DNA from: Escherichia phage CLB_P2
Length of the DNA: 64,000 bases
Reading direction: 5' to 3' (one strand)
Sequence record: OL770107
Below are positions 17,740 to 27,936 of this stretch, one piece after another. The notes beneath the pieces are model-generated. The model saw nothing but the letters and a program-made list of their open reading frames with translations. It did no database searches and was not told where the DNA came from. Each line of letters begins with the position of its first letter. Position 1 is the first letter of the stretch. Position numbers and translations under genes: made by a program.

Positions 17740-18063
17740 ATGGAACTTCCTATTAAAGCGGTTGGAGAATATGTTATTCTCGTTTCCGAACCAAAACAAG
17801 CTGGCGATGAAGAAACTACTGCATCTGGTATCGTTATTGGCAAACTTCATCAAGGTGAAATCCCTGAACTTTGTGAAATTTATTCTGTAGGACCTGATGT
17901 CCCTGAAGGTTTTTGTGAAGTAGGCGATTTGACTCCACTTCCTGTTGGTAAGATTGCTAACGTGCCTCACCCTTTAGTTGCATTGGGTATTAAACAGCCT
18001 AAAGAAATTAAACAGAAATTCGTTACCTGTCACTATAAAGCTATTCCGTGTCTTTATAAGTGA
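17740..18063 (+). CDS. 31: co-chaperonin gp31 (GroES-like), 107 aa
   Basis: [21 protein letters not shown]...[20 protein letters not shown]...[23 protein letters not shown] matches remembered T4 gp31. Confidence 0.92.
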
Positions 18064-18223
18064 TATAAATAATAATATGGATTGGCTGATGCCATACAGA
18101 GCTTTGCTGGTGTATGGGGTTAGCTAATCCTAAGCGGTGGACTACAACTGAGAGACTTGCCGAAAGGAAGTGAAATTCAGAAGAACGTGTCCACCAATCT
18201 TTATCTCGAATTGAGAATTTAAA

Positions 18224-18472
18224 ATGAACAAACATCTGAATCACGCTCTTGAACTGCAACGCAACGCTTGGAACAACGGCCACGAAAACTATGGTGCATC
18301 TATTGATGTTGAAGCCGAAGCACTGGAAATCCTGCGTTATTTCAAACATCTTAATCCTGCTCAGGCTACTCTGGCTGCTGAACTGGAAGCAAAAGATGAA
18401 CTGAAATATGCTAAGCCTTTGGCTTCAGCAGCTCGTAAAGCAGTACGTCATTTTATTATTACCCTGAAGTAA
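18224..18472 (+). CDS. rIII: rIII-like lysis-inhibition accessory protein (82 aa)
   Basis: 82 aa, the same size and position (after gene 31) as T4 rIII; no motif verified. Confidence 0.55.
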   Translation: MNKHLNHALELQRNAWNNGHENYGASIDVEAEALEILRYFKHLNPAQATLAAELEAKDELKYAKPLASAARKAVRHFIITLK

Positions 18473-18825
18473 AATCGAGGAGCCGTCGAACTGTCTGATT
18501 AATGATTTGCGAATCATTATAGTTTTAAGACCCCGGCAGTTTTACGGTGTACCTCTTGAATGTTATTTTATAGCGGCAAGTGCATGCTACCCCGAGGTGA
18601 TGGCCAATCGGGAGTACGCCTCAAGGCCTATATACCCATCAGTATATATCTTATCCTCGAGAAATCGAACCCGGAACCTTTAAGCTAACGGTGTGCAACA
18701 GATAAGAGCTATGATGACGAGGTTTATGGTTATCCTGTCGTTAAATATCCGAAACCTATGTTCCCCTTGAGGGCTTGCGCAGGCAACGCCAATAAGTCCT
18801 GCATTCTAATTTAAGAGATTTAAAA
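18473..18825 (+). other. about 350-nt region without a convincing ORF; candidate structured leader or ncRNA
   Basis: All frames are interrupted; candidate ORFs are 42 aa or shorter and lack a ribosome-binding site; several local inverted repeats. Confidence 0.3.
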
Positions 18826-18987
18826 ATGGCTAAGAAAGAAGTTAAAGTAGTTGACGGAACCTCTAAACGCGCTGGTTACAAGCGTGCGTCTAACAAGCGT
18901 ATCAATCAGGTAGTTGATAAGCTTCAAGCTCGTGCTCGTGCAGTATTGCGTGCAGATGCTGCTTGCTTCGGTAAAGTTATTGCATAA
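18826..18987 (+). CDS. small basic protein (53 aa)
   Basis: ATG at 18826; Lys/Arg-rich product MAKKEVKVVDGTSKRAGYKRASNKR...; followed directly by a strong terminator. Too short for the ORF track. Confidence 0.4.
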   Translation: MAKKEVKVVDGTSKRAGYKRASNKRINQVVDKLQARARAVLRADAACFGKVIA

Positions 18988-18992
18988 GTTAT

Positions 18993-19020
18993 GGGACTCT
19001 TCGGAGTCCCATTTTTGTTT
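18993..19020 (+). terminator. rho-independent terminator
   Basis: GGGACTC-TTCG-GAGTCCC hairpin followed by ATTTTTGTTT. Confidence 0.7.
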
Positions 19021-19038
19021 CTAAATCTTTAAAAAAAG

Positions 19039-19067
19039 GTATACATCTCCGGTAGGCATGATACTAT
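19039..19067 (+). promoter_or_regulatory. early-type promoter (degenerate -35 GTATAC, -10 TACTAT)
   Basis: 17-nt spacing; followed by a conserved 40-nt leader. Confidence 0.4.
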
Positions 19068-19108
19068 AGACATGTACCAAATAATACGAAAACAAACTGG
19101 AGAATAAA

Positions 19109-19477
19109 ATGAAAATCAATCTTAACTCATACATCAAAGGTAAAGACCACGACGGTTACAAAGCCATTGAAACTAAAGAGATGCAATGGCGCTTGTACAA
19201 AGAACAATTTGAATTTGTAGGTTGTATGACTCCTGAAGGTCCTTCCGATGACTTCTCTTGGAAAATTTTGGTAACAAACTTTTTTACTGGCGATACCTAC
19301 GAACTGAAAACTATCATAACCGGTAAGATTCGTTGTAAGACCTATGAAGATGAAGAAACCGGTTATTCTGAAGATGTTACATGGTATCAAAATGGTCGTA
19401 TCACTACAGATAACCTGATCGAAAAAATGAATGCCAAAGGTGAATTAAATTTAGATAATTGGATTAAAGTTGCATAA
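19109..19477 (+). CDS. hypothetical protein (122 aa)
   Basis: ORF with SD GGAG; the 40-nt leader up to the ATG is identical to that of the next ORF. Confidence 0.6.
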   Translation: MKINLNSYIKGKDHDGYKAIETKEMQWRLYKEQFEFVGCMTPEGPSDDFSWKILVTNFFTGDTYELKTIITGKIRCKTYEDEETGYSEDVTWYQNGRITTDNLIEKMNAKGELNLDNWIKVA

Positions 19478-19481
19478 AACG

Positions 19482-19521
19482 GTTTACTTTGGTACAGGTT
19501 GTGTTATTATAGACCTGTACC
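19482..19521 (+). promoter_or_regulatory. early-type promoter with inverted repeat
   Basis: GTTTAC 19482-19487, TATTAT 19505-19510; GGTACAGGT / ACCTGTACC inverted repeat. Confidence 0.5.
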
Positions 19522-19551
19522 AAATAATACGAAAACAAACTGGAGAATAAA

Positions 19552-19917
19552 ATGAACTACATCAACTTCGAACGTAAATATGTTTCTAACGGTATCGCTG
19601 GTTCTTCTGAAGTTATTTGTCTGTGGAAACACAACAACGGCACAGTGTGTGAAATCGAACAGTGCATGACTCCTAACTACGTTTATATGCGCTTTGAAAA
19701 TGGTATCACAGTTTCAATCACTATGGAAGGTTCTACTTTTAAAATCGCTTTGGACGATGATTTCCGTCAACGTGATTTAGGTACCCATCCTTGCTGGAAC
19801 GGTTCTAATCGTAAGCTTCTGGTTAAAACCTGGATTCGTCACATCCTGAGCAACCGTGCTAAACCTGAACACCTGGAAGCAATCTTTGATGTAGTTCTGA
19901 ATGAATTTGATATCTAA
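19552..19917 (+). CDS. hypothetical protein (121 aa)
   Basis: ORF with the same leader and SD as 19109..19477. Confidence 0.6.
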   Translation: MNYINFERKYVSNGIAGSSEVICLWKHNNGTVCEIEQCMTPNYVYMRFENGITVSITMEGSTFKIALDDDFRQRDLGTHPCWNGSNRKLLVKTWIRHILSNRAKPEHLEAIFDVVLNEFDI

Positions 19918-19958
19918 TCTTAAAAATGGAGGCTTCGGCCTCCTTTGAGGAAAATATT

Positions 19959-20246
19959 ATGTTTATGACCACTTATTTCGATACTCGTAAAAATTTCTGT
20001 GAAGTTGTTTTCTCTAAGGCAGGTAAAGATGTTCCTGCTGAAAAACAGCCTACTCGTGAATCCATTAAGGCTTATGCTGATGTGGTTTGTCCAGTAGAAT
20101 TCCGTACAGTCAATGGTCGTGACACCCTAGCAATCACTAAGCTCAACCATGATATTAACATCGACCCTAGCGCTGCCCGTGAAGTCAATACTTCTGACAT
20201 CTACGGTGGTAATGTTAAATCACATGGATTTCAGATGAGGTTCTAA
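19959..20246 (+). CDS. hypothetical protein (95 aa)
   Basis: ATG at 19959 after SD GAGGA; the upstream in-frame ATG at 19926 lies inside the hairpin GGAGGC-TTCG-GCCTCC. Confidence 0.5.
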   Translation: MFMTTYFDTRKNFCEVVFSKAGKDVPAEKQPTRESIKAYADVVCPVEFRTVNGRDTLAITKLNHDINIDPSAAREVNTSDIYGGNVKSHGFQMRF

Positions 20247-20440
20247 TGCAACTATTCTTATCACAAACCGTTCAGCTAAAAGGCATAGGTATTCCTGGTA
20301 TGATTTCAAAGGTTTTACCTGCTTTTAAATTAGGTAATGCTACTATTAAAGAAGCCTACACCGTCCTATGGGTCGATGGCACTGAAGACGTTCGCATGGG
20401 TTCTGAATTGTCTGTAATCAAATGTTTGAAGCGAGGATAA
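20246..20440 (+). CDS. hypothetical protein (64 aa)
   Basis: ORF coupled to neighbours. Confidence 0.45.
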   Translation: MQLFLSQTVQLKGIGIPGMISKVLPAFKLGNATIKEAYTVLWVDGTEDVRMGSELSVIKCLKRG

Positions 20441-20441
20441 C

Positions 20442-20654
20442 ATGTTTAGGAAATTGATTCAGAAATTATTAGGTACGGAAATGGTCGAAGTGACTTATCG
20501 TGTAACCGACGTAAGTCCATGGGCCCGGAATATTGAACCATATACTAAAACAATTAAAATGCTGAAATCTGACGGTGGATTATCTATTAAAGACCGTCTT
20601 CCCGGTTATGGACATTGGGCTGATGTCGAAATTATAAGTGTCAAAGATGTCTGA
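20442..20654 (+). CDS. hypothetical protein (70 aa)
   Basis: ORF coupled to neighbours. Confidence 0.45.
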   Translation: MFRKLIQKLLGTEMVEVTYRVTDVSPWARNIEPYTKTIKMLKSDGGLSIKDRLPGYGHWADVEIISVKDV

Positions 20655-21105
20655 GTTAGAAATTAGAAGTAACTTTCCATGGCCATCATGCGCATTAAGT
20701 AACTTTGCTAAATGGCCTTTCGTTATGGATGGTATCCAATTTGGTGGACTCGAAGGATTCCTCCAAGGATGTAAGGTGAAAAATGTTGAACAACAAAAAC
20801 GTATATTTAGGATGTCCGGGTTGGACGCGCAAAAAGCTGGACGAGCTTATGCTAGAGCTGCGGACCGTGGGACGCTTTTCTGGCTTGGAATTCCCTTTTC
20901 AAGATACTCTGCAGCATGGAAAGAGTTGTATACAAATGCATATTTTGAAGCAGCGCTCCAGAACAAAGGATTCCGAGAAGCTTTACAAGCCACTAAAGGT
21001 AAGGTTTTAAAGCATTCAATGGCAAGCCACCTCAAAGAATGTGATACAATACTAACTGAAAAAGAGTTTATCGACATCCTAAACAAATTGAGAGATTTAT
21101 TATGA
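20638..21105 (+). CDS. NADAR / YbiA-like (DUF1768) domain protein (155 aa)
   Basis: Pattern SNFAKWPF..DG..F...EGFLQ..K and ALQATKGKVLKHS parallels E. coli YbiA (SNFAAWPI..DG..W...EHYFQAQKF, ALLATAPAKLVEH) as remembered. Confidence 0.55.
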   Translation: MSKMSELEIRSNFPWPSCALSNFAKWPFVMDGIQFGGLEGFLQGCKVKNVEQQKRIFRMSGLDAQKAGRAYARAADRGTLFWLGIPFSRYSAAWKELYTNAYFEAALQNKGFREALQATKGKVLKHSMASHLKECDTILTEKEFIDILNKLRDLL

Positions 21106-21740
21106 AACCAGTTATCTTAACAGATATCGATGGAGTATGTTTGAGTTGGCAGTCCGGCTTGCCTTATTTCGCACAGAAATATAATTTGCCTTTAGAACAT
21201 ATTTTGAATATGATTCAGGACGAACGTTTCTTATCTCCAGGCGAACTGTTTAATTGTGACGACGAATTAGGCTCACGTTTAATAGAGAAGTATAACCAGT
21301 CAGATTTTATTCGTTATCTGTCCCCTTACATGGACGCATTAAAACACATCAACAAGCTCAAAAAAGACTTCGATTTTGTAGCCGTGACTGCGCTAGGCGA
21401 CTCAATTGACGCTCTGCTGAATAGACAATTCAATTTGAATGCTTTGTTCCCTGGCGCATTCAAGGAGATTCTGATGTGTGGCCATTCAGAATCAAAAGAA
21501 GACCTGTTCATAAGAGCTAAAAATACGTACGGCAAACGCATTAAGTTTTATGTTGACGATTTGGCTCACCACTGTGATGCTGCATCCAATATTCTCATGG
21601 ATATCCAAGTTTATTGGTTAGCCCGTGGTGAACGCGACTTTAAACCTAATTTAGCCGTAAAGGTTAATTCATGGGACGATATCGCAGCTATCGAATCCCT
21701 TCGTAATAATGCAGCAGTTGAATGGATTGCTCGAGGTTAA
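21102..21740 (+). CDS. HAD-superfamily hydrolase-like protein (212 aa)
   Basis: N-terminal motif I-like ILTDIDGV (DxDG) and a downstream YVDD acidic motif; function not determined. Confidence 0.5.
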   Translation: MKPVILTDIDGVCLSWQSGLPYFAQKYNLPLEHILNMIQDERFLSPGELFNCDDELGSRLIEKYNQSDFIRYLSPYMDALKHINKLKKDFDFVAVTALGDSIDALLNRQFNLNALFPGAFKEILMCGHSESKEDLFIRAKNTYGKRIKFYVDDLAHHCDAASNILMDIQVYWLARGERDFKPNLAVKVNSWDDIAAIESLRNNAAVEWIARG

Positions 21741-21741
21741 T

Positions 21742-22014
21742 ATGTTTGTTGTTCATACAATTTCAGGCCATGGCCCTACCACTACAATGGATTATGGTCA
21801 CGTCAATCAGTTCTTTCGTCATCAACCTTTATTTAGGATTGCCAAAGAAAATCCTTTATTTAAAGAATGTGTGGAGCAAGGGTTTATTTACATCAGCAAA
21901 TACGACGTAAATATGTTTTCCACAGGCAATAATAGAATGATTACCTACAATAAACGCCTTGACTTGCTGTTAGAAGAAGTGGCGTATAATAGAAATCAAT
22001 CCGGAAGAAGGTAA
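21742..22014 (+). CDS. hypothetical protein (90 aa)
   Basis: ATG at 21742 two nt after the upstream stop. Confidence 0.45.
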   Translation: MFVVHTISGHGPTTTMDYGHVNQFFRHQPLFRIAKENPLFKECVEQGFIYISKYDVNMFSTGNNRMITYNKRLDLLLEEVAYNRNQSGRR

Positions 22015-22017
22015 ATT

Positions 22018-23523
22018 ATGATTTTAGATATTTTGAACGAAATTGCTGCTATCGATTCTACTAAAGCTAAAGAAGCTATTATTGCACGTGAAAAGGATAA
22101 CGAGCTTCTGAAACGCGTTTATCGTATGGCTTATACCCGTCGTCTGAACTACGGTATTAAAAAGTGGCCAGAACCTGGATTTACGTCTCAGTCCTTTGGT
22201 ATGATTACACTTGAAGACCTTCTTGATTTCGCTGAGTTCACACTAGCAACCCGTAAGATTACAGGTAATGCTGCTATTGAAGAACTTGCCCAAATTATTG
22301 CCGATGCTAAGGGTCAAGATGCCGAGGTATTACGTCGCGTAATGATGCGTGACCTTGAATGTGGTGCATCGATTTCTATTGCTAACAAGGTTTGGAAAGG
22401 TTTAATCCCTGAACAACCTCAAATGTTGGCTAGTTCTTATGACGAAGCCCTGATTAAGAAAAATATTAAATGGCCAGCGTTCGCTCAATTAAAAGCTGAT
22501 GGTGCTCGTTGTTTTGCTGAAGTTCGTAACGACGGGGTAACATTCCTTACTCGCGGTGGTAATGAATATCAAGGGCTTACTAAATTAGCTGAAGAACTTA
22601 TTAAAATGACTGAAGAAGCTCGTCAGCGTCATCCTAATGGTGTTATGATTGACGGTGAATTAGTTTACCATACGCCTAAGGTTGAACCGAAAGCATCTAA
22701 CGATTTGTTTAGTATGTTTGATGAAGAACTTCCAGAATTAAGTAAAGCCAAGGAATTCCAGACAGTCGCCGACCGTTCTACTTCAAATGGTTTGGCTAAT
22801 AAGGCCCTCCAAGGAACCATTACTCCAGCTGAAGCAGATGGTATGGTATTGCAGGCATGGGACTATGTTCCACTGGATGAAGTTTATTCTGAAGGCAAAA
22901 TTAAAGGTCAAAAATACGATGTCCGTTTAGCGGCATTAGTACAAATGGCTGAAGGTTTTACACGTGTCGAGCCTATTGAAACGCAATGGGTTAATAATCT
23001 TGAAGAAGCTAAAGTCGTTTATAAGAAATATGTCGACCAAGGCCTGGAAGGTATTATCCTTAAGAACATGGACTCCTACTGGGAAAACCGCCGTTCTAAG
23101 AATCTTATCAAGTTCAAAGAAGTAATCGATATCGCTTTAGAAGTGGTAGGTTATTATGAACACTCGAAGGACCCTAACAAACTTGGTGGTGTTGAGTTAG
23201 TATCGCGGTGCCGTCGAATTACATCCGACTGTGGTTCAGGCTTTAAAGATACTACCCATAAGAAAGATAAATCGGGTAAAAAGGTATTGATTCCATTAGA
23301 AGACCGACCTGATTTAGACCGTGAACTTCTTATGAAACAAGCTCGTGAAGGTAAGTTGATTGGACGTATTGCTGACTGTGAATGTAATGGTTGGGTTCAT
23401 TCTAAAGGACGTACAGATACTGTAGGTATTTTCCTTCCAATTATTAAAGGTTGGCGTTTCGATAAAACAGAAGCTGATACATTTGAAGATGTATTTGGCG
23501 ATTGGTCTCAAACTGGACTATAA
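22018..23523 (+). CDS. 30: ATP-dependent DNA ligase (501 aa)
   Basis: Strong match to remembered T4 DNA ligase (MIL.ILNEIA, catalytic lysine motif QLKADGARCFAE, RDLECGAS, EGIILKN, CECNGW). Confidence 0.95.
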   Translation: MILDILNEIAAIDSTKAKEAIIAREKDNELLKRVYRMAYTRRLNYGIKKWPEPGFTSQSFGMITLEDLLDFAEFTLATRKITGNAAIEELAQIIADAKGQDAEVLRRVMMRDLECGASISIANKVWKGLIPEQPQMLASSYDEALIKKNIKWPAFAQLKADGARCFAEVRNDGVTFLTRGGNEYQGLTKLAEELIKMTEEARQRHPNGVMIDGELVYHTPKVEPKASNDLFSMFDEELPELSKAKEFQTVADRSTSNGLANKALQGTITPAEADGMVLQAWDYVPLDEVYSEGKIKGQKYDVRLAALVQMAEGFTRVEPIETQWVNNLEEAKVVYKKYVDQGLEGIILKNMDSYWENRRSKNLIKFKEVIDIALEVVGYYEHSKDPNKLGGVELVSRCRRITSDCGSGFKDTTHKKDKSGKKVLIPLEDRPDLDRELLMKQAREGKLIGRIADCECNGWVHSKGRTDTVGIFLPIIKGWRFDKTEADTFEDVFGDWSQTGL

Positions 23524-23524
23524 T

Positions 23525-23698
23525 ATGAAAGCTTATTTAGAAACAATTGTAATATCGCATACTACGGCGGCCCCAGCCGTTTCTCAAACCATTTTAGAAT
23601 TCACAGATGAAGCCGCATATAATAAATTTATTGAAGTCTTTGATGGCTATGAAAAAGGCCCGACATTCGAAGTATATCGTACGTTGCTACCACTTTAA
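23525..23698 (+). CDS. hypothetical protein (57 aa)
   Basis: ATG one nt after the ligase stop; followed by a terminator. Confidence 0.4.
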   Translation: MKAYLETIVISHTTAAPAVSQTILEFTDEAAYNKFIEVFDGYEKGPTFEVYRTLLPL

Positions 23699-23716
23699 GG
23701 CCTTCGGGCCTTTTAT
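23698..23716 (+). terminator. rho-independent terminator
   Basis: AGGCC-TTCG-GGCCT hairpin followed by TTTTAT. Confidence 0.6.
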
Positions 23717-23748
23717 GGCATAAATACGGTTATTAAAGAGGAATTATT

Positions 23749-25809
23749 ATGACCGAACAATTGAATGAGGTGTTTGAGTCCGAAGGCACCCTGCCTACTG
23801 TAAACTTAAACCCAAAACTTAAAGTACCCCAGATTTGGAAGATTGGCGATGCTGAATCCCAATTGGTTGCTCGTATGGTATCTTATGCCTCTGAAGGCGA
23901 TGCTATTAAACAGGTTAAATTAGGTGATAAATACGCCCACGTTATCCTTATGAGCCTTTCAGCTAAAGGTTCTCCAGCCGAACTTAAAGGCGGCCTAGGC
24001 CCTACTCCTATTGATGCTATCAATACCATTTTCGACGTAGTATTCGAACAAGTTAAAAAGCTTCGTATGGATGCAGTGATGTTCCGTTTTCCAACCAAGA
24101 AAATGAAAGGACAAGGCCCTATTGTCCAACGGATTATCCAACGTTTGGTAGCACAGAAAACCGGTGGACGTTTTAAAGTAGTTCCTGCTATGTACCAATT
24201 TACCGGTAAACATACTTATATCCTAGTAGTTCGTAAACAAGCTGATATCGAAGATATCAAAGGTATGCCAGGAATTAATTCCGAATTATACACTAAGGTA
24301 GATTCTGATGTCGGTGAAGTTTATATTTCTAAAAAAGAAGGCGTACAGGTTACTAAAGAAACTGCTATTGCCGGCAGTATTGCCAAAGTTGAAGAACGTC
24401 GCACTGATAAAATGGTTATAACCAAGACTAAGATTTCTCGTCGCGCTATTGCAGCAAGCCAGTCTTTAGAATCCTATCGTAATGAAAGTGAACTGTTTAA
24501 GAAATATGAAGCCACTGCCGCTGATTTTAATAAACCGGCAACAGCTCCATTAATCCCTGAGGCCCAGGAAATGGTCACCAATAACAATTCTCCTGCGGCT
24601 AAAAATAAAGTTGCTAATATAGTAGCTGAAGGCACTGCTGAAGAGTTGCATTACGATTATAAAATGTTTCCTCTTCACGGTATAGGTGAAATCCAAGAGA
24701 AAATTAAAGAGAAAATCCTTACAGCCATCAAAAACGAACCTTTGACATCTGTTAAAGCTCTAGAAAAATATGCCTCTGTTATTAATACAGTTTTTGAAGA
24801 ATATAAAGGCGAATGGCTGGCTATACATAACAAAACTCGTAAAGGTCAACCTGACGACGTCTGGAATGAATTAACCGAGTCCAAGTGGAAAGCCGCTAAG
24901 ACCAAGTTCATTAAAAAACGTGTTTATAGTTTTGCTGGTGTAGGTGGCGGTATTATGGTTGATATTACTTTAGGTCATAGTGCAGATAAATACACCCCTT
25001 CTCAAAAACGTGGTATTCGTGAATATTGTGGCTCCGGATATGGCGATATCAATAACCTTCTTTTAGGACGATATAATCCTCAGAACTATGAAGTTATGAG
25101 CGAAAAAGATATCGAATCTGCAGTTAATAATTTGGATTCTGCTTTTGAAAACGGTGATAGATTACCTGAAGGCATCACAGTTTATCGTGCACAGAGTATG
25201 ACGTGGGCCATATATAATGCTTTAGTCAAAAATAAAGTATTCTATTTTAGAAACTTTGTATCAACTTCACTGACCCCTATTATTTTCGGTCGTTTTGGTG
25301 TTACTCATGCCGGTGTAGGTCTTTTAGAGCCTGAAGTTAGAGCCGAACTTACTGTAGATAAAAATGATGAAGGTTATACTAAGGTCCAAGGTTCCGGCGA
25401 CAAATTGGTTAAAGTTGGTTGGGCCATTGACGGTGCTTCTAAAGTTAACGTGGTATTCCCAGGACAACTTGGTATTGCTACTGAAGCTGAAATCATTCTT
25501 CCGCGCGGACTAATGGTAAAAATTAATAAGATAACAGATGCATCTAATAATGATGGTATAATATCCAACAATACAAAACTCATTCAAGCTGAAGTTATGA
25601 CATCAGATGAGCTTCAAGAATCTGTAGTGTATGATGGTGACGTACTAATGGAAACCGGTGAATTGGTTGTATACCAAGATGACTTCGATACTTCCGAAAG
25701 CCCTGTATCTTTTGATTCATTTGTTAAATCTACACGGTTTGACGTACTGCCTCTTTTGGCTTCATGCATAGACCTCTATGACATACCAGAAAAATTCATC
25801 CAAGGGTAA
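23749..25809 (+). CDS. alt: Alt-like ADP-ribosyltransferase, copy 1 (686 aa)
   Basis: R-S-E ADP-ribosyltransferase signature (YRAQ, FVSTSL, EAEIILPRG); size near T4 Alt; position between ligase and gene 54. Confidence 0.85.
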   Translation: MTEQLNEVFESEGTLPTVNLNPKLKVPQIWKIGDAESQLVARMVSYASEGDAIKQVKLGDKYAHVILMSLSAKGSPAELKGGLGPTPIDAINTIFDVVFEQVKKLRMDAVMFRFPTKKMKGQGPIVQRIIQRLVAQKTGGRFKVVPAMYQFTGKHTYILVVRKQADIEDIKGMPGINSELYTKVDSDVGEVYISKKEGVQVTKETAIAGSIAKVEERRTDKMVITKTKISRRAIAASQSLESYRNESELFKKYEATAADFNKPATAPLIPEAQEMVTNNNSPAAKNKVANIVAEGTAEELHYDYKMFPLHGIGEIQEKIKEKILTAIKNEPLTSVKALEKYASVINTVFEEYKGEWLAIHNKTRKGQPDDVWNELTESKWKAAKTKFIKKRVYSFAGVGGGIMVDITLGHSADKYTPSQKRGIREYCGSGYGDINNLLLGRYNPQNYEVMSEKDIESAVNNLDSAFENGDRLPEGITVYRAQSMTWAIYNALVKNKVFYFRNFVSTSLTPIIFGRFGVTHAGVGLLEPEVRAELTVDKNDEGYTKVQGSGDKLVKVGWAIDGASKVNVVFPGQLGIATEAEIILPRGLMVKINKITDASNNDGIISNNTKLIQAEVMTSDELQESVVYDGDVLMETGELVVYQDDFDTSESPVSFDSFVKSTRFDVLPLLASCIDLYDIPEKFIQG

Positions 25810-25812
25810 ATA

Positions 25813-27936
25813 ATGGAAAATTTAAACGAAGTTTTTGATAGTGATTCCGCTAAAAACTATCCAGTAACAAATCTTAAGCCAGGCTCAGGTATCCCACAGA
25901 TTTTCTCTATCCAAGCACCAGGTAATGATAACCTGGTTGCTCGTATGGTATCTTATGCGTCTCAAGGAGACGCTATTAAAATGGTTAAGCCTGGCGACAA
26001 ATATGTCCACGTTATTCTAATGAGTTTGTCAAGCAAGGGTGCTCCGGCTGAACTCAAAGGTGGGCTTGGTTCCGACCCGCTTGGTGCATTGAATACTATT
26101 TTCGATACGATATATGAACAAGTAAACAAACTTAAAATGGATGCAGTTTTGTTCCGTTTCCCTACCAAGAAAATGAAAGGTAAGGGTCCTACTGTTCAGC
26201 GGGTATTAGCTCGTTTGGTGATGGCACGTACCGGTGGTAAGTTTAAAGTTGTTGATAACATGTTCCAATTCAGTGGAAAACATACCTATGTTCTTTTAGT
26301 ACGTCGCGGCACTAATATCGAAGATATCAAGGGTATGCCTGAAATTGATGCTGACCTTTATACCAAGGTTGAGTCTAAAGTTGGTGAAGTTTATGTTTCT
26401 AAGAAAACTGGCCGGGCCGTAAGTAAGGTCGAAGCCGTGGCGGCATCTATTGCACAGGTTGAAGAGAAACGTACCGATAAGGCTGTTATCTCTCGTACTA
26501 AGATTTCTCGTCGTATGGCTGCAGCAGCACAGTATTCTACTGCCGAACCTGAAACTTTATCCCCTAAAGAATTGCAGGTTTATAATGAGTTTGAAGCTTC
26601 TGTACCTGTTCATTCGGCTGAAGGTCCTGAGAACGAAGGTATTGAACAAATTAGCCAGAACTTTAAAAAAGGTGCTATTACTAAAATGCGTCAGGCCTCT
26701 CAGTTTAAATCTAAGAGTGAGGACCTTGCCAACTTTAGATACACCATTGCTCTCACACACGCTTTAATGACTGATAGTAAATTTAAACTAAATTATGCTA
26801 ATAGAGATAAACAAGGGTTTGAAATTTACTCTAATAATATGGCATTTTTTAATACGGAAGTCGATAGACTTTTAAGCGGCCTTTCTCAAATCAATACTAC
26901 CAATAGTCTGGATATTATTAAGAGAATTGTTAATAACCTGAGTGCCCGTTTTCAGGGGTCTCCTTCAGAGAAAGCATCCCGAATTGCTTTCGCTATGGAA
27001 GCCGTTTATAAACTGATTAACGATTCTATTAGCGATGCATATGCTTATTCAGGCGAGCTCATTAAACCTAAGGGCTTGACCAAAGACGAAAGTAATGCCA
27101 TTATTGAATATTGTGCGGCTGAATATGCTCCTATGAACTTATTCCTTTTAGGTAAACCTGAATCCGAAAACAATACAACAGCTATTAAATTGATTAAGGA
27201 TTTAGACTCAGCATTTACCAAGGGTATTAAACTTCCTAAAGGTACTATTTTGTATCGTGGTCAGGATTTACCATACAAAATTCTGCGCCATAATATTGAT
27301 AACAAAACCTTTTACTTTAAGAACTTTGTATCCGCTTCATTAAAGCCTAATATCTTTGGTGAATTTGGTAAAAATTATATGGCCCTCGACAACCAAGCAG
27401 TTTTTGTTGGTGATGAAGGTTCTTTATCCTCCGCCGATGAGTTGTTTAAATTGGCCAGTGGTAGTTCATCTGACGTAGGTGAAGTTGATGATGAAGAGGT
27501 AGAATGGGAAGAAGACGAGTTTGGTAATCCAATTGCACCTGAAGGCCCTGCAGACAGGATTGCTGAAATTGGTATGGTTATTCGAGGTGCTGAAGCAGTT
27601 AAAGTTATCGCTCCTGGTGACCTTACAGAATATGCCGAAGAAGCGGAAATTATCCTTCCGCGCGGATTATTGTTGAAGGTTGATAAAGTAGCAGCTTTTG
27701 CTATGAATGATAGGGTATCTCACAAATACCTTATGGAAGCTACAGTGACATCTCCTTCAGAACTCAGTGAGTCCGTTTACGATGGTGACCATCTGATGGA
27801 AACCGGCGAAGTTAAATTGATGAATGGGTTTAAAGAATTCCTAGTTTCAGAATCTGTTTCAGAAAGTAACGAGGCTATGGAAATCCTTGCTGCATCTTTG
27901 GACATCTCTTCTTTACCAAATAAATTCAAAATGTAG
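25813..27936 (+). CDS. Alt-like ADP-ribosyltransferase, copy 2 (707 aa), tandem paralog
   Basis: Shares the first ~220 aa with copy 1 (LVARMVSYAS.GDAIK, HVILMSLS.KG.PAELKGGLG, FRFPTKKMKG.GP) and the motifs YRGQ, FVSASL, EAEIILPRG; central region divergent with an acidic insert. Confidence 0.85.
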   Translation: MENLNEVFDSDSAKNYPVTNLKPGSGIPQIFSIQAPGNDNLVARMVSYASQGDAIKMVKPGDKYVHVILMSLSSKGAPAELKGGLGSDPLGALNTIFDTIYEQVNKLKMDAVLFRFPTKKMKGKGPTVQRVLARLVMARTGGKFKVVDNMFQFSGKHTYVLLVRRGTNIEDIKGMPEIDADLYTKVESKVGEVYVSKKTGRAVSKVEAVAASIAQVEEKRTDKAVISRTKISRRMAAAAQYSTAEPETLSPKELQVYNEFEASVPVHSAEGPENEGIEQISQNFKKGAITKMRQASQFKSKSEDLANFRYTIALTHALMTDSKFKLNYANRDKQGFEIYSNNMAFFNTEVDRLLSGLSQINTTNSLDIIKRIVNNLSARFQGSPSEKASRIAFAMEAVYKLINDSISDAYAYSGELIKPKGLTKDESNAIIEYCAAEYAPMNLFLLGKPESENNTTAIKLIKDLDSAFTKGIKLPKGTILYRGQDLPYKILRHNIDNKTFYFKNFVSASLKPNIFGEFGKNYMALDNQAVFVGDEGSLSSADELFKLASGSSSDVGEVDDEEVEWEEDEFGNPIAPEGPADRIAEIGMVIRGAEAVKVIAPGDLTEYAEEAEIILPRGLLLKVDKVAAFAMNDRVSHKYLMEATVTSPSELSESVYDGDHLMETGEVKLMNGFKEFLVSESVSESNEAMEILAASLDISSLPNKFKM

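Follow-up and report, generated by a model that had tools for sequence, protein, structure and literature searches.

The closest described relative of the protein examined here is gp30.3 of phage T4, which was named AdfN (anti-DarT factor NADAR) by Johannesman et al. (Nat Commun 2025;16:1598). AdfN is a guanine-ADP-ribose DNA glycohydrolase that is both necessary and sufficient against DarTG1. Deletion of adfN from T4 or T2 lowers plating on DarTG1 hosts by about 4 logs, RB69 is rescued by ectopic AdfN, the E36A and K43A mutants are inactive, and purified T4 AdfN alone strips ADPr from DarT1-modified DNA (Nat Commun 2025;16:1598). RB69 itself carries a frameshift by which the last 15 residues are lost, and this loss correlates with sensitivity to DarTG1 (Nat Commun 2025;16:1598). 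The in vitro activity of phage NADAR has also been reported independently, and in T4 Tn-seq with plasmid DarTG1 and rich medium, gene 30.3 showed a log2FC of -7.25 on DarTG1. T4 AdfN does not rescue uninfected E. coli from DarT1 toxicity and is effective only in T-even infection, where a further T-even protein may be required for its action (Nat Commun 2025;16:1598). This restriction leaves the published mechanism incomplete.

Two other described NADAR proteins serve as points of comparison. DarG1 is the NADAR antitoxin of DarTG1 (G. lovleyi, 8BAT; E. coli C7). E. coli YbiA (PDB 2B3W; YbiA family, COG3236) is known as a riboflavin-intermediate N-glycosidase and gives no in vivo protection against DarT1. 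Phage NADARs are described in the literature as consisting of the core only, and they carry a His where the YbiA family has a Glu and DarG1 its catalytic Asp.

We analyzed a window of 64,000 nucleotides that was 100% identical to the T4-like phage Dhakavirus CLBP2. The original prediction, made from the sequence, had placed a NADAR/YbiA-like ORF next to a HAD-like hydrolase ORF in a block upstream of DNA ligase. Both ORFs are present on the + strand, at 20638..21105 (155 aa when read from a GTG) and at 21102..21740 (212 aa), and they are the orthologs of T4 genes 30.3 and 30.2. The gene order of the locus is 30.9-30.8-...-30.4-30.3-30.2-30.1-30-alt, which matches that of T4 and IME08. Gene 30, encoding the ATP-dependent DNA ligase, does lie downstream on the + strand (22018..23523; Pfam DNA_ligase_A_M, E=9.4e-24), but the HAD gene does not adjoin it. 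Between them is the small gene 30.1 ortholog (21742..22014, + strand), which occupies the same place in the T4 gene order and matches Pfam DUF3045 (E=1.7e-23), the match beginning at residue 12 of the longer ORF.

Upstream, the gene 30.4 ortholog (20442..20654, + strand) is translationally coupled to adfN. The start of gene 30.3 is probably the ATG at 20647, and the in-frame GTG at 20638 is the less likely choice, because the ATG gives a protein of 152 aa, the length of T4 gp30.3, and reproduces the same 8-nt overlap with the 30.4 stop. We therefore give the adfN ortholog as 20647..21105. The gene 30.2 start in turn overlaps the 30.3 stop codon (ATGA). A scan of positions 18000..24000 for promoters and terminators revealed no enrichment relative to shuffles.

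The protein encoded by the gene 30.3 ORF is a full-length ortholog of T4 gp30.3 (AdfN). The two proteins are equal in length and 85% identical over their full length, differing by 23 substitutions (15% of residues), and Pfam PF08010 (Phage_30_3) matched the ORF with E=1.2e-64 (216.7 bits, cutoff 36). The general NADAR model behaved differently: PF08719 gave no match at E<=1, so the NADAR profile search proposed in the original prediction fails for this ORF. TIGR02464, the YbiA domain model annotated as "riboflavin intermediates N-glycosidase", matched only weakly (E=0.027, 14.7 bits, cutoff 73.7), and the KVP40 ortholog of gp30.3 touched PF08719 with E=0.0022. Curated NADAR models thus miss the phage clade. 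Because this clade matches the separate Phage_30_3 model, rejecting a protein for want of a significant NADAR hit, as the original prediction had proposed, would wrongly discard a true NADAR. No PADLOC model matched either gp30.3 or gp30.2.

Since neither Pfam NADAR nor NCBIfam gave a significant hit, the case for homology was built on the family profile, on hhalign and on the predicted fold. YbiA was the sole match of the gp30.3 family profile in the whole PDB (E=9e-4), and hhalign aligned gp30.3 with E. coli YbiA across 126 columns with E=3.8e-6. The YbiA-like motifs from which the NADAR call had been made were recovered, as LSNFAKWPFVMDGIQFGGLEGFLQGCK in the ORF equals FSNFAAWPIKVDGKTWPTSEHYFQAQK of YbiA at every residue, and ALQATKGKVLKHS was also found. 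The predicted structure adopts a YbiA-like alpha+beta fold, in which a helical core lies between two small beta-sheets, and a fold search returned YbiA as the closest solved structure. Taken together, profile, fold and catalytic residues identify the ORF product as a NADAR.

We then located the catalytic and structural sites, using T4 AdfN numbering. The codon of the catalytic Glu36 lies at 20752..20754 (+ strand); this residue does not vary in alignments A3 and A4, and its counterpart in YbiA is E48. Lys43 (20773..20775, + strand) is as in T4 and aligns with YbiA K55, and more distant members of the gp30.3 family have K, R or H at this position. Q40, like E36, is invariant in the gp30.3 family, and both the Glu and the Lys of the E-x-x-x-Q-x-x-K helix are present. 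The phage-clade residue His123 (21013..21015, + strand) sits in the last beta-strand, predicted at residues 120-124, and is invariant in A3 and A4. Because hhalign sets YbiA Glu125 against Lys122 of gp30.3 and not against His123, the structural equivalence of His123 and Glu125 is taken from the literature and not from our alignment. A MAFFT alignment including YbiA was dropped for this comparison, as the YbiA C-terminus was misaligned in it. The C-terminal alpha-helix, residues 138-152 (21058..21102, + strand), is intact; the model places it at 138-151, and the ORF ends where that of T4 does.

The protein therefore resembles T4 AdfN in its slot between genes 30.4 and 30.2, in E36, K43, H123 and the C-terminal helix, and in its core-only NADAR fold; it differs in its substitutions and in being borne by a Dhakavirus. 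The genes flanking the ORF are the 30.4 and 30.2 orthologs, and no DarT1 toxin gene adjoins it, unlike the DarG1 arrangement with its neighboring darT. The protein also lacks the N-terminal extension that forms the DNA-binding channel of DarG1: it has 152 aa compared with 219 aa in 8BAT, there are only 17 residues ahead of the SNF motif, and 121 residues aligned with 8BAT. The catalytic Asp of DarG1 is replaced by His, and T4 AdfN cannot stand in for DarG1 in uninfected cells. YbiA shares only ~20-25% identity with the ORF product and bears the Glu of its own family.

The neighboring ORF is an ortholog of T4 gp30.2, with 75% identity, and a literature search for "gp30.2" found no papers. The product is a HAD-fold protein with a cap and all four phosphatase motifs. 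The predicted motif I (DIDGV) was found within TDIDGV, where D8-I-D10 (21123..21131, + strand) would supply the nucleophile and the acid/base Asp, and D8, D10 and G11 are invariant among 62 gp30.2 homologs. The remaining motifs are conserved in the same alignment: Thr96 of motif II (21387..21389, + strand) in at least 90% of sequences, at the end of a predicted strand at 91-96; Lys132 of motif III (21495..21497, + strand) without variation; and the Asp152-Asp153 pair of motif IV (21555..21560, + strand), putative Mg2+ ligands at the end of a predicted strand at 147-152, likewise invariant. W16, Y64, N65, R108 and R175, which surround the predicted cap pocket, are invariant as well. The structural model (pLDDT 95.1) shows a Rossmannoid HAD core in which motifs I and II are separated by inserted helices, the cap comprising ~75 residues after motif I with helices at 16-86. 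We accordingly annotate the gene as a HAD-superfamily, C1-capped, DxD-type putative phosphatase.

For gp30.2, no Pfam family passed its cutoff. The best meaningful sequence matches in PDB and Pfam were to 5'(3')-deoxyribonucleotidases (Pfam NT5C; cdN/mdN; S. epidermidis 3BWV), all below the family cutoff, with sub-threshold E values of 0.08-0.15 and an NT5C score of 13.2 bits against a gathering threshold of 24.8. Among the 62 homologs, 11 touched PF00702 and 9 touched NT5C (E<=0.1, best 0.002). Other capped HAD enzymes scored nearly as well, and structure searches, including Foldseek against PDB, did not tell NT5C apart from other capped HADs. When the gp30.2 profile was searched against 5.8 billion proteins, only close homologs were listed, all of them without Pfam domains.

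Based on these data, we consider it very probable that the locus encodes a Dhakavirus AdfN ortholog acting against DarTG1, together with a gp30.2 HAD phosphomonoesterase. AdfN would be a minimal, core-only NADAR enzyme produced early in infection. Host DarT1 would ADP-ribosylate guanines of the replicating phage DNA, and AdfN would hydrolyze the N-glycosidic bond of guanine-ADP-ribose by means of Glu36, Lys43 and the phage-clade His123, restoring the DNA template and allowing phage growth on DarTG1 hosts. The target of AdfN would thus be the lesion and not the toxin. By analogy with T4 AdfN, both the enzymatic activity and the counter-defense role are expected of the Dhakavirus protein. For its part, gp30.2 would act as a Mg2+-dependent phosphomonoesterase with a helical C1 cap, most probably on a small phosphorylated metabolite, for which a (deoxy)nucleotide-like compound is our best guess, and it would not be needed for the anti-DarTG1 function.

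The anti-DarT role proposed in the original prediction is supported by experiments on the T4 ortholog, and the publication of T4 gp30.3 as AdfN makes the present finding a rediscovery. The text of that article mentions neither Dhakavirus nor JS98 (Nat Commun 2025;16:1598). The original prediction had suggested co-expression with a DarT toxin in E. coli as an assay; because T4 AdfN is negative in uninfected cells, a failed rescue from DarT1 would be no refutation of the function.

It is unlikely that the main in vivo substrate of the NADAR is some other ADP-ribose conjugate, with the anti-DarTG1 activity only one facet of its role. Candidate substrates would include ADP-ribosylated RNA, soluble ADPr-derived immune signals, and the products of phage Alt/Mod ADP-ribosyltransferases. 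Two Alt-like ART paralogs are indeed located 2.6 kb downstream (23749..27936), G-ADPr is removed from RNA in vitro by all NADAR families, and Iyer et al. (2022) argued for co-expression of ARTs with phage NADARs and for a possible preference of the latter for soluble ADPr derivatives. However, T4 gene 30.3 is non-essential on K-12, where 27 of its 28 TA sites were hit in genome-wide Tn-seq, and is strongly required only with DarTG1. In addition, the rescue on DarTG1 is lost in catalytic mutants, and C-ADPr is not removed by phage NADAR.

For gp30.2, a polynucleotide-end phosphatase that aids the neighboring DNA ligase in nick repair, like the phosphatase domain of T4 Pnkp, could be envisaged in place of a small-molecule phosphatase. 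The predicted helical cap makes this improbable. As Burroughs and colleagues reportedly described in 2006, HAD caps enclose small substrates, and Pnkp-type enzymes are said to be capless. Alignments to Pnkp also span only 126-129 residues, compared with 164-185 for capped HADs.

The adjacency of the two genes could also suggest a two-step module, in which the HAD protein processes what the NADAR has released, be it ADP-ribose or a phosphoribosyl product, or else supplies the T-even-specific helper of AdfN. The ATGA overlap is consistent with such a module, and the 30.3-30.2 pair was adjacent and collinear in 997 of 1,561 phage records, including those of distant Acinetobacter phages. In KVP40, the NADAR gene is followed by a non-orthologous HAD of the NT5C family, and in Vibrio phage D485, NadV is encoded close to a gp30.2 homolog, with three small ORFs between them. 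The suggested dependence of AdfN on another T-even protein (Nat Commun 2025;16:1598) would also fit. Nevertheless, we regard this module as very unlikely, given that purified AdfN alone de-modifies DNA and that insertions in T4 gene 30.2 caused no fitness change on DarTG1 in Tn-seq (log2FC -0.12, Padj 1.0, 71 sites). The association is also incomplete, as the genes are apart or one is absent in about one third of the records, and Aeromonas phage 65 keeps 30.2 beside the ligase gene without a NADAR.

Owing to the Tn-seq result and this incomplete adjacency, gp30.2 as a partner of AdfN was rejected as the leading reading. Because gene 30.2 is dispensable on DarTG1 hosts, the pair is a case of synteny and not a demonstrated two-enzyme unit. 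A broader link, in which gp30.2 shares the ADP-ribose/NAD conflict in which AdfN takes part, is suggested by the adjacency in about 1,000 genomes, the NT5C-type HAD of KVP40 and the proximity to NadV in D485, but we hold it to be rather improbable. If true, gp30.2 could take the phosphate off a product or signal of phosphoribosyl or nucleotide type, or be the T-even factor needed by AdfN, and its role would be visible only outside the plasmid-DarTG1, rich-medium conditions of the Tn-seq experiment.

It is extremely unlikely that the gene 30.3 product is a YbiA-like metabolite N-glycosidase that serves damage control of riboflavin intermediates and takes no part in defense: YbiA is its closest solved structure and only PDB sequence match, and TIGR02464 matched weakly, but the ORF belongs to the gp30.3 clade of phages, which has His where the YbiA family has Glu, and both the DarTG1 phenotype and the DNA de-ADP-ribosylation of its T4 ortholog are documented.

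The main value of the preferred reading, an AdfN ortholog beside a HAD phosphatase, lies in annotation; the gene can be named adfN. By analogy with T4, resistance of this phage to DarTG1-type defense is predicted, which is relevant to the choice of therapeutic T4-like phages. The public record OZ035781.1 is without annotation, and in most relatives both genes are labeled "hypothetical protein".

The small upstream gp30.4 is a second candidate for the AdfN helper; in Tn-seq on DarTG1 hosts, 30.3 and 30.4 were the only two genes of T4 with significant depletion. Its ortholog in the window is a 70-aa protein that shares 46% identity with T4 gp30.4 and matches phrog_2042 with E=2.5e-34.

The window is 100% identical to the Dhakavirus CLBP2 record (OZ035781.1) and 92-94% identical to the JS98/IME08 group of T4-like phages. 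Between 16.6 and 28 kb on the + strand, the T4 gene order is kept (cd, 31, rIII, 30.9 ... 30.4, 30.3, 30.2, 30.1, 30 (DNA ligase), alt), and both ORFs of the original prediction, a NADAR/YbiA-like gene followed by a HAD gene, were found as described. The identical public record OZ035781.1 carries no annotation; in related records both genes are mostly labeled "hypothetical protein", with a few entries reading "ybiA-like" and "HAD-like", or "Member of NADAR superfamily".

The reading frame of the first ORF (+ strand, ending at 21105) opens with a GTG at 20638. An ATG at 20647 gives a product of 152 aa, exactly the length of T4 gp30.3, and an 8-nt overlap with the 30.4 stop, as in T4; because both features match T4, 20647 is the likely start. 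The product matched PF08010 (Phage_30_3; 216.7 bits, E=1.2e-64) in Pfam and phrog_652 in PHROGs, and it aligns without indels to T4 gp30.3 (85% identity) and to its IME08 counterpart (93%). T4 gene 30.3 has been renamed adfN, for anti-DarT factor NADAR (Johannesman et al., bioRxiv 2024; Nat Commun 2025;16:1598). All testable defining features of the phage NADAR/gp30.3/AdfN family are present in the first ORF, which is a member of this family. A tblastn search found gene 30.3 in 1510 phage records, with hosts including Escherichia, Klebsiella, Aeromonas, Acinetobacter, Vibrio, and Rhizobium. Inside adfN lies a 75-aa ATG-started ORF (20783..21010, +, frame +1), which corresponds in length and position to the annotated T4 gene 30.3' and to IME08 "orf194". 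A counterpart of similar length occurs in an Acinetobacter phage, and none is present in KVP40. This ORF may be expressed, or may merely be kept through the high identity of the main frame.

All motifs quoted in the original prediction are in the sequence, and the YbiA pattern was accurate. A direct HMM hit, one of the checks proposed for this assignment, was not obtained: the first ORF gave no match to the curated NADAR model PF08719 at E<=1 and only grazed TIGR02464 (E=0.027). For the KVP40 ortholog, PF08719 gave a weak match at E=0.0022. When a profile of ten gp30.3 homologs was searched against the PDB, E. coli YbiA was the only chain matched (E=9e-4), and hhalign aligned this profile with YbiA nearly end to end over 126 columns (E=3.8e-6, probability 87%). 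Together with the retention of E36 and K43, the published catalytic residues of T4 AdfN, these comparisons indicate that the relationship to NADAR is real despite the failed direct match, and the original call was right. His123 (T4 numbering), located in the last predicted strand, does not vary among relatives as distant as 36% identity. In published descriptions, the phage clade carries this His where the YbiA family has Glu and DarG1 has Asp; in our hhalign register, which is one residue off from this equivalence, YbiA Glu125 faces Lys122 and YbiA His126 faces His123.

The biology of the first ORF is already known from work published in 2024-2025, in which resistance to DarTG1, a bacterial defense system consisting of the DarT1 toxin and the NADAR antitoxin DarG1, was mapped by phage crosses to the 3' part of gene 30.3 (Nat Commun 2025;16:1598). 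Deletion of adfN from T4 or T2 lowered plating on DarTG1 hosts by about 4 logs, and RB69, the one sensitive T-even phage, has a frameshift that deletes the last 15 residues of gp30.3 and was rescued by ectopic AdfN, not by E36A or K43A (Nat Commun 2025;16:1598). AdfN did not bind DarT1, and the purified protein took ADP-ribose off DarT1-modified DNA (Nat Commun 2025;16:1598). In vitro activity of phage NADAR was also demonstrated independently and is specific for guanine-ADPr, not cytidine-ADPr; DarTG2 is unaffected by AdfN. In a T4 Tn-seq study, 30.3 was non-essential on K-12 (27/28 TA sites hit), and insertions in it were practically lost on DarTG1 (log2FC -7.25, adjusted p 0). The best-supported mechanism is that, during infection, AdfN enzymatically reverses the ADP-ribosylation of guanines in the phage DNA. 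The Dhakavirus protein probably functions as T4 AdfN does, given that it is 85% identical, keeps the catalytic residues, and lies in the same gene order. The anti-defense role proposed in the original prediction was right. In the structure model, its C-terminal helix is complete (residues 138-151), and it is therefore not an RB69-like dead allele. Neither Dhakavirus nor JS98 is named in the text of the published AdfN study (Nat Commun 2025;16:1598).

The first ORF product probably works like DarG1, but it is not a DarG1: no toxin gene adjoins it, it lacks the extra N-terminal elements of DarG1, the catalytic Asp is replaced by His, and the T4 ortholog is unable to act as an antitoxin. E. coli expressing DarT1 without phage was rescued by neither T4 AdfN nor YbiA; a negative toxin co-expression result would therefore not refute the function, whereas a negative plaque assay on DarTG1 hosts would. 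T4 AdfN gave only marginal protection to non-T-even phages. T4-GT7 was still protected, indicating that the T-even restriction does not come from DNA modification, and the final paper suggested that AdfN may need an additional T-even protein (Nat Commun 2025;16:1598).

Gene 30.4 was also depleted in the T4 Tn-seq on DarTG1 (log2FC -1.79, adjusted p 0.014) and is not mentioned in the main text of that paper; 30.5 showed a non-significant trend in the same direction, and 30.2 and 30.1 were unaffected. Because upstream genes were affected and downstream genes were not, and because the stop of the 30.4 ortholog (20442..20654) overlaps the adfN start (ATGTCTGA), a polar effect on adfN expression is the simplest explanation. 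It is conceivable that gp30.4 is instead a real helper of AdfN, but gp30.4 is only 46% identical between the window phage and T4, and no counterpart lies upstream of NADAR in Acinetobacter or KVP40 phages.

The second ORF (21102..21740, +) begins with an ATG overlapping the TGA of the first (ATGA at 21102-21105). Its 212-aa product is 75% identical to residues 1-191 of T4 gp30.2. T4 gp30.2 is a 278-aa protein (T4 comparison locus L001, 2475..3311) with a C-terminal tail of ~85 residues, which has no counterpart in the Dhakavirus protein (compared at 21680..21740). Homologs range from 196 to 347 aa, suggesting that the HAD core bears a variable C-terminal appendage. The second ORF matched phrog_420 ("unknown function") and no Pfam model above threshold (NT5C, 13.2 bits versus 24.8); at E<=0.1, PF00702 was touched by 11 of 62 homologs and NT5C by 9. 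The HAD assignment was nevertheless borne out by four phosphatase motifs in the alignment of these 62 homologs, in which D8, D10, K132, D152, and D153 never vary and at least 90% of the sequences keep T96, and by a HAD-type structure model (pLDDT 95.1). In this model the core is Rossmannoid, and the helices inserted between motifs I and II (16-86) form a C1-type cap. The protein is thus a HAD superfamily member, placed in neither NT5C nor another curated family. The DxD motif points to a phosphatase and away from a dehalogenase, and in the HAD superfamily a cap argues for a small substrate. The only meaningful sequence match in the PDB was mouse 5'(3')-deoxyribonucleotidase (E=0.11-0.15), which shares the extended motif D-x-D-G-V-x-x-x-[FW]-[EQ]-S-G-L with gp30.2. 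A nucleotide-like substrate is our best, though tentative, guess.

Whether adfN and 30.2 form a functional pair was weighed from gene context. Besides their overlapping stop and start codons, the two genes lie next to each other and collinear in 997 of the 1561 phage records matched by tblastn with the two proteins fused as query, extending to Acinetobacter phages of another subfamily. In KVP40 (L004, 2507..3461), NADAR is followed by a different HAD protein, a bona fide NT5C member (Pfam E=5e-11) that is non-orthologous and related to gp30.2 around motif I only. In Vibrio phage D485 (L006, 1..3073), a true gp30.2 homolog lies near NadV, a nicotinamide phosphoribosyltransferase of NAD salvage, with three small ORFs between them. 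These two contexts hint at a nucleotide- or NAD-related role for these HAD proteins. However, the two genes lie at separate places in many Klebsiella, Enterobacter, Salmonella, Aeromonas, and Proteus phages, and in Aeromonas phage 65, 30.2 stays beside the ligase with no NADAR nearby. In the T4 Tn-seq, control versus DarTG1, only 30.3 and 30.4 were significant genome-wide, with 30.2 showing a log2FC of -0.12 (adjusted p 1.0, 71 sites). Because of this null result, the split loci, and the activity of purified AdfN alone in vitro, we regard the side-by-side placement as conserved synteny and make no claim of a two-enzyme pathway.

Several further features were observed around the pair. The mechanical ORF for gene 30.1 (21709..22014) begins inside gene 30.2; since its Pfam and PHROG matches start at residue 12, translation probably begins at 21742, with an ATG one base past the 30.2 stop, giving a 90-aa DUF3045 protein, the same as in T4. 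After the ligase and alt.1 lie two tandem paralogous genes for Alt-like ADP-ribosyltransferases (23749..25809 and 25813..27936; 686 and 707 aa), where T4 has a single alt, so that "writers" and an "eraser" of ADP-ribose lie less than 3 kb apart in this phage. Finally, a strong terminator-like hairpin (18991..19012; 9-bp stem, 5 GC pairs, T-run) follows a small ORF (18826..18987) upstream of the 30.8-like gene and could be a boundary between transcription units in the small-ORF block.
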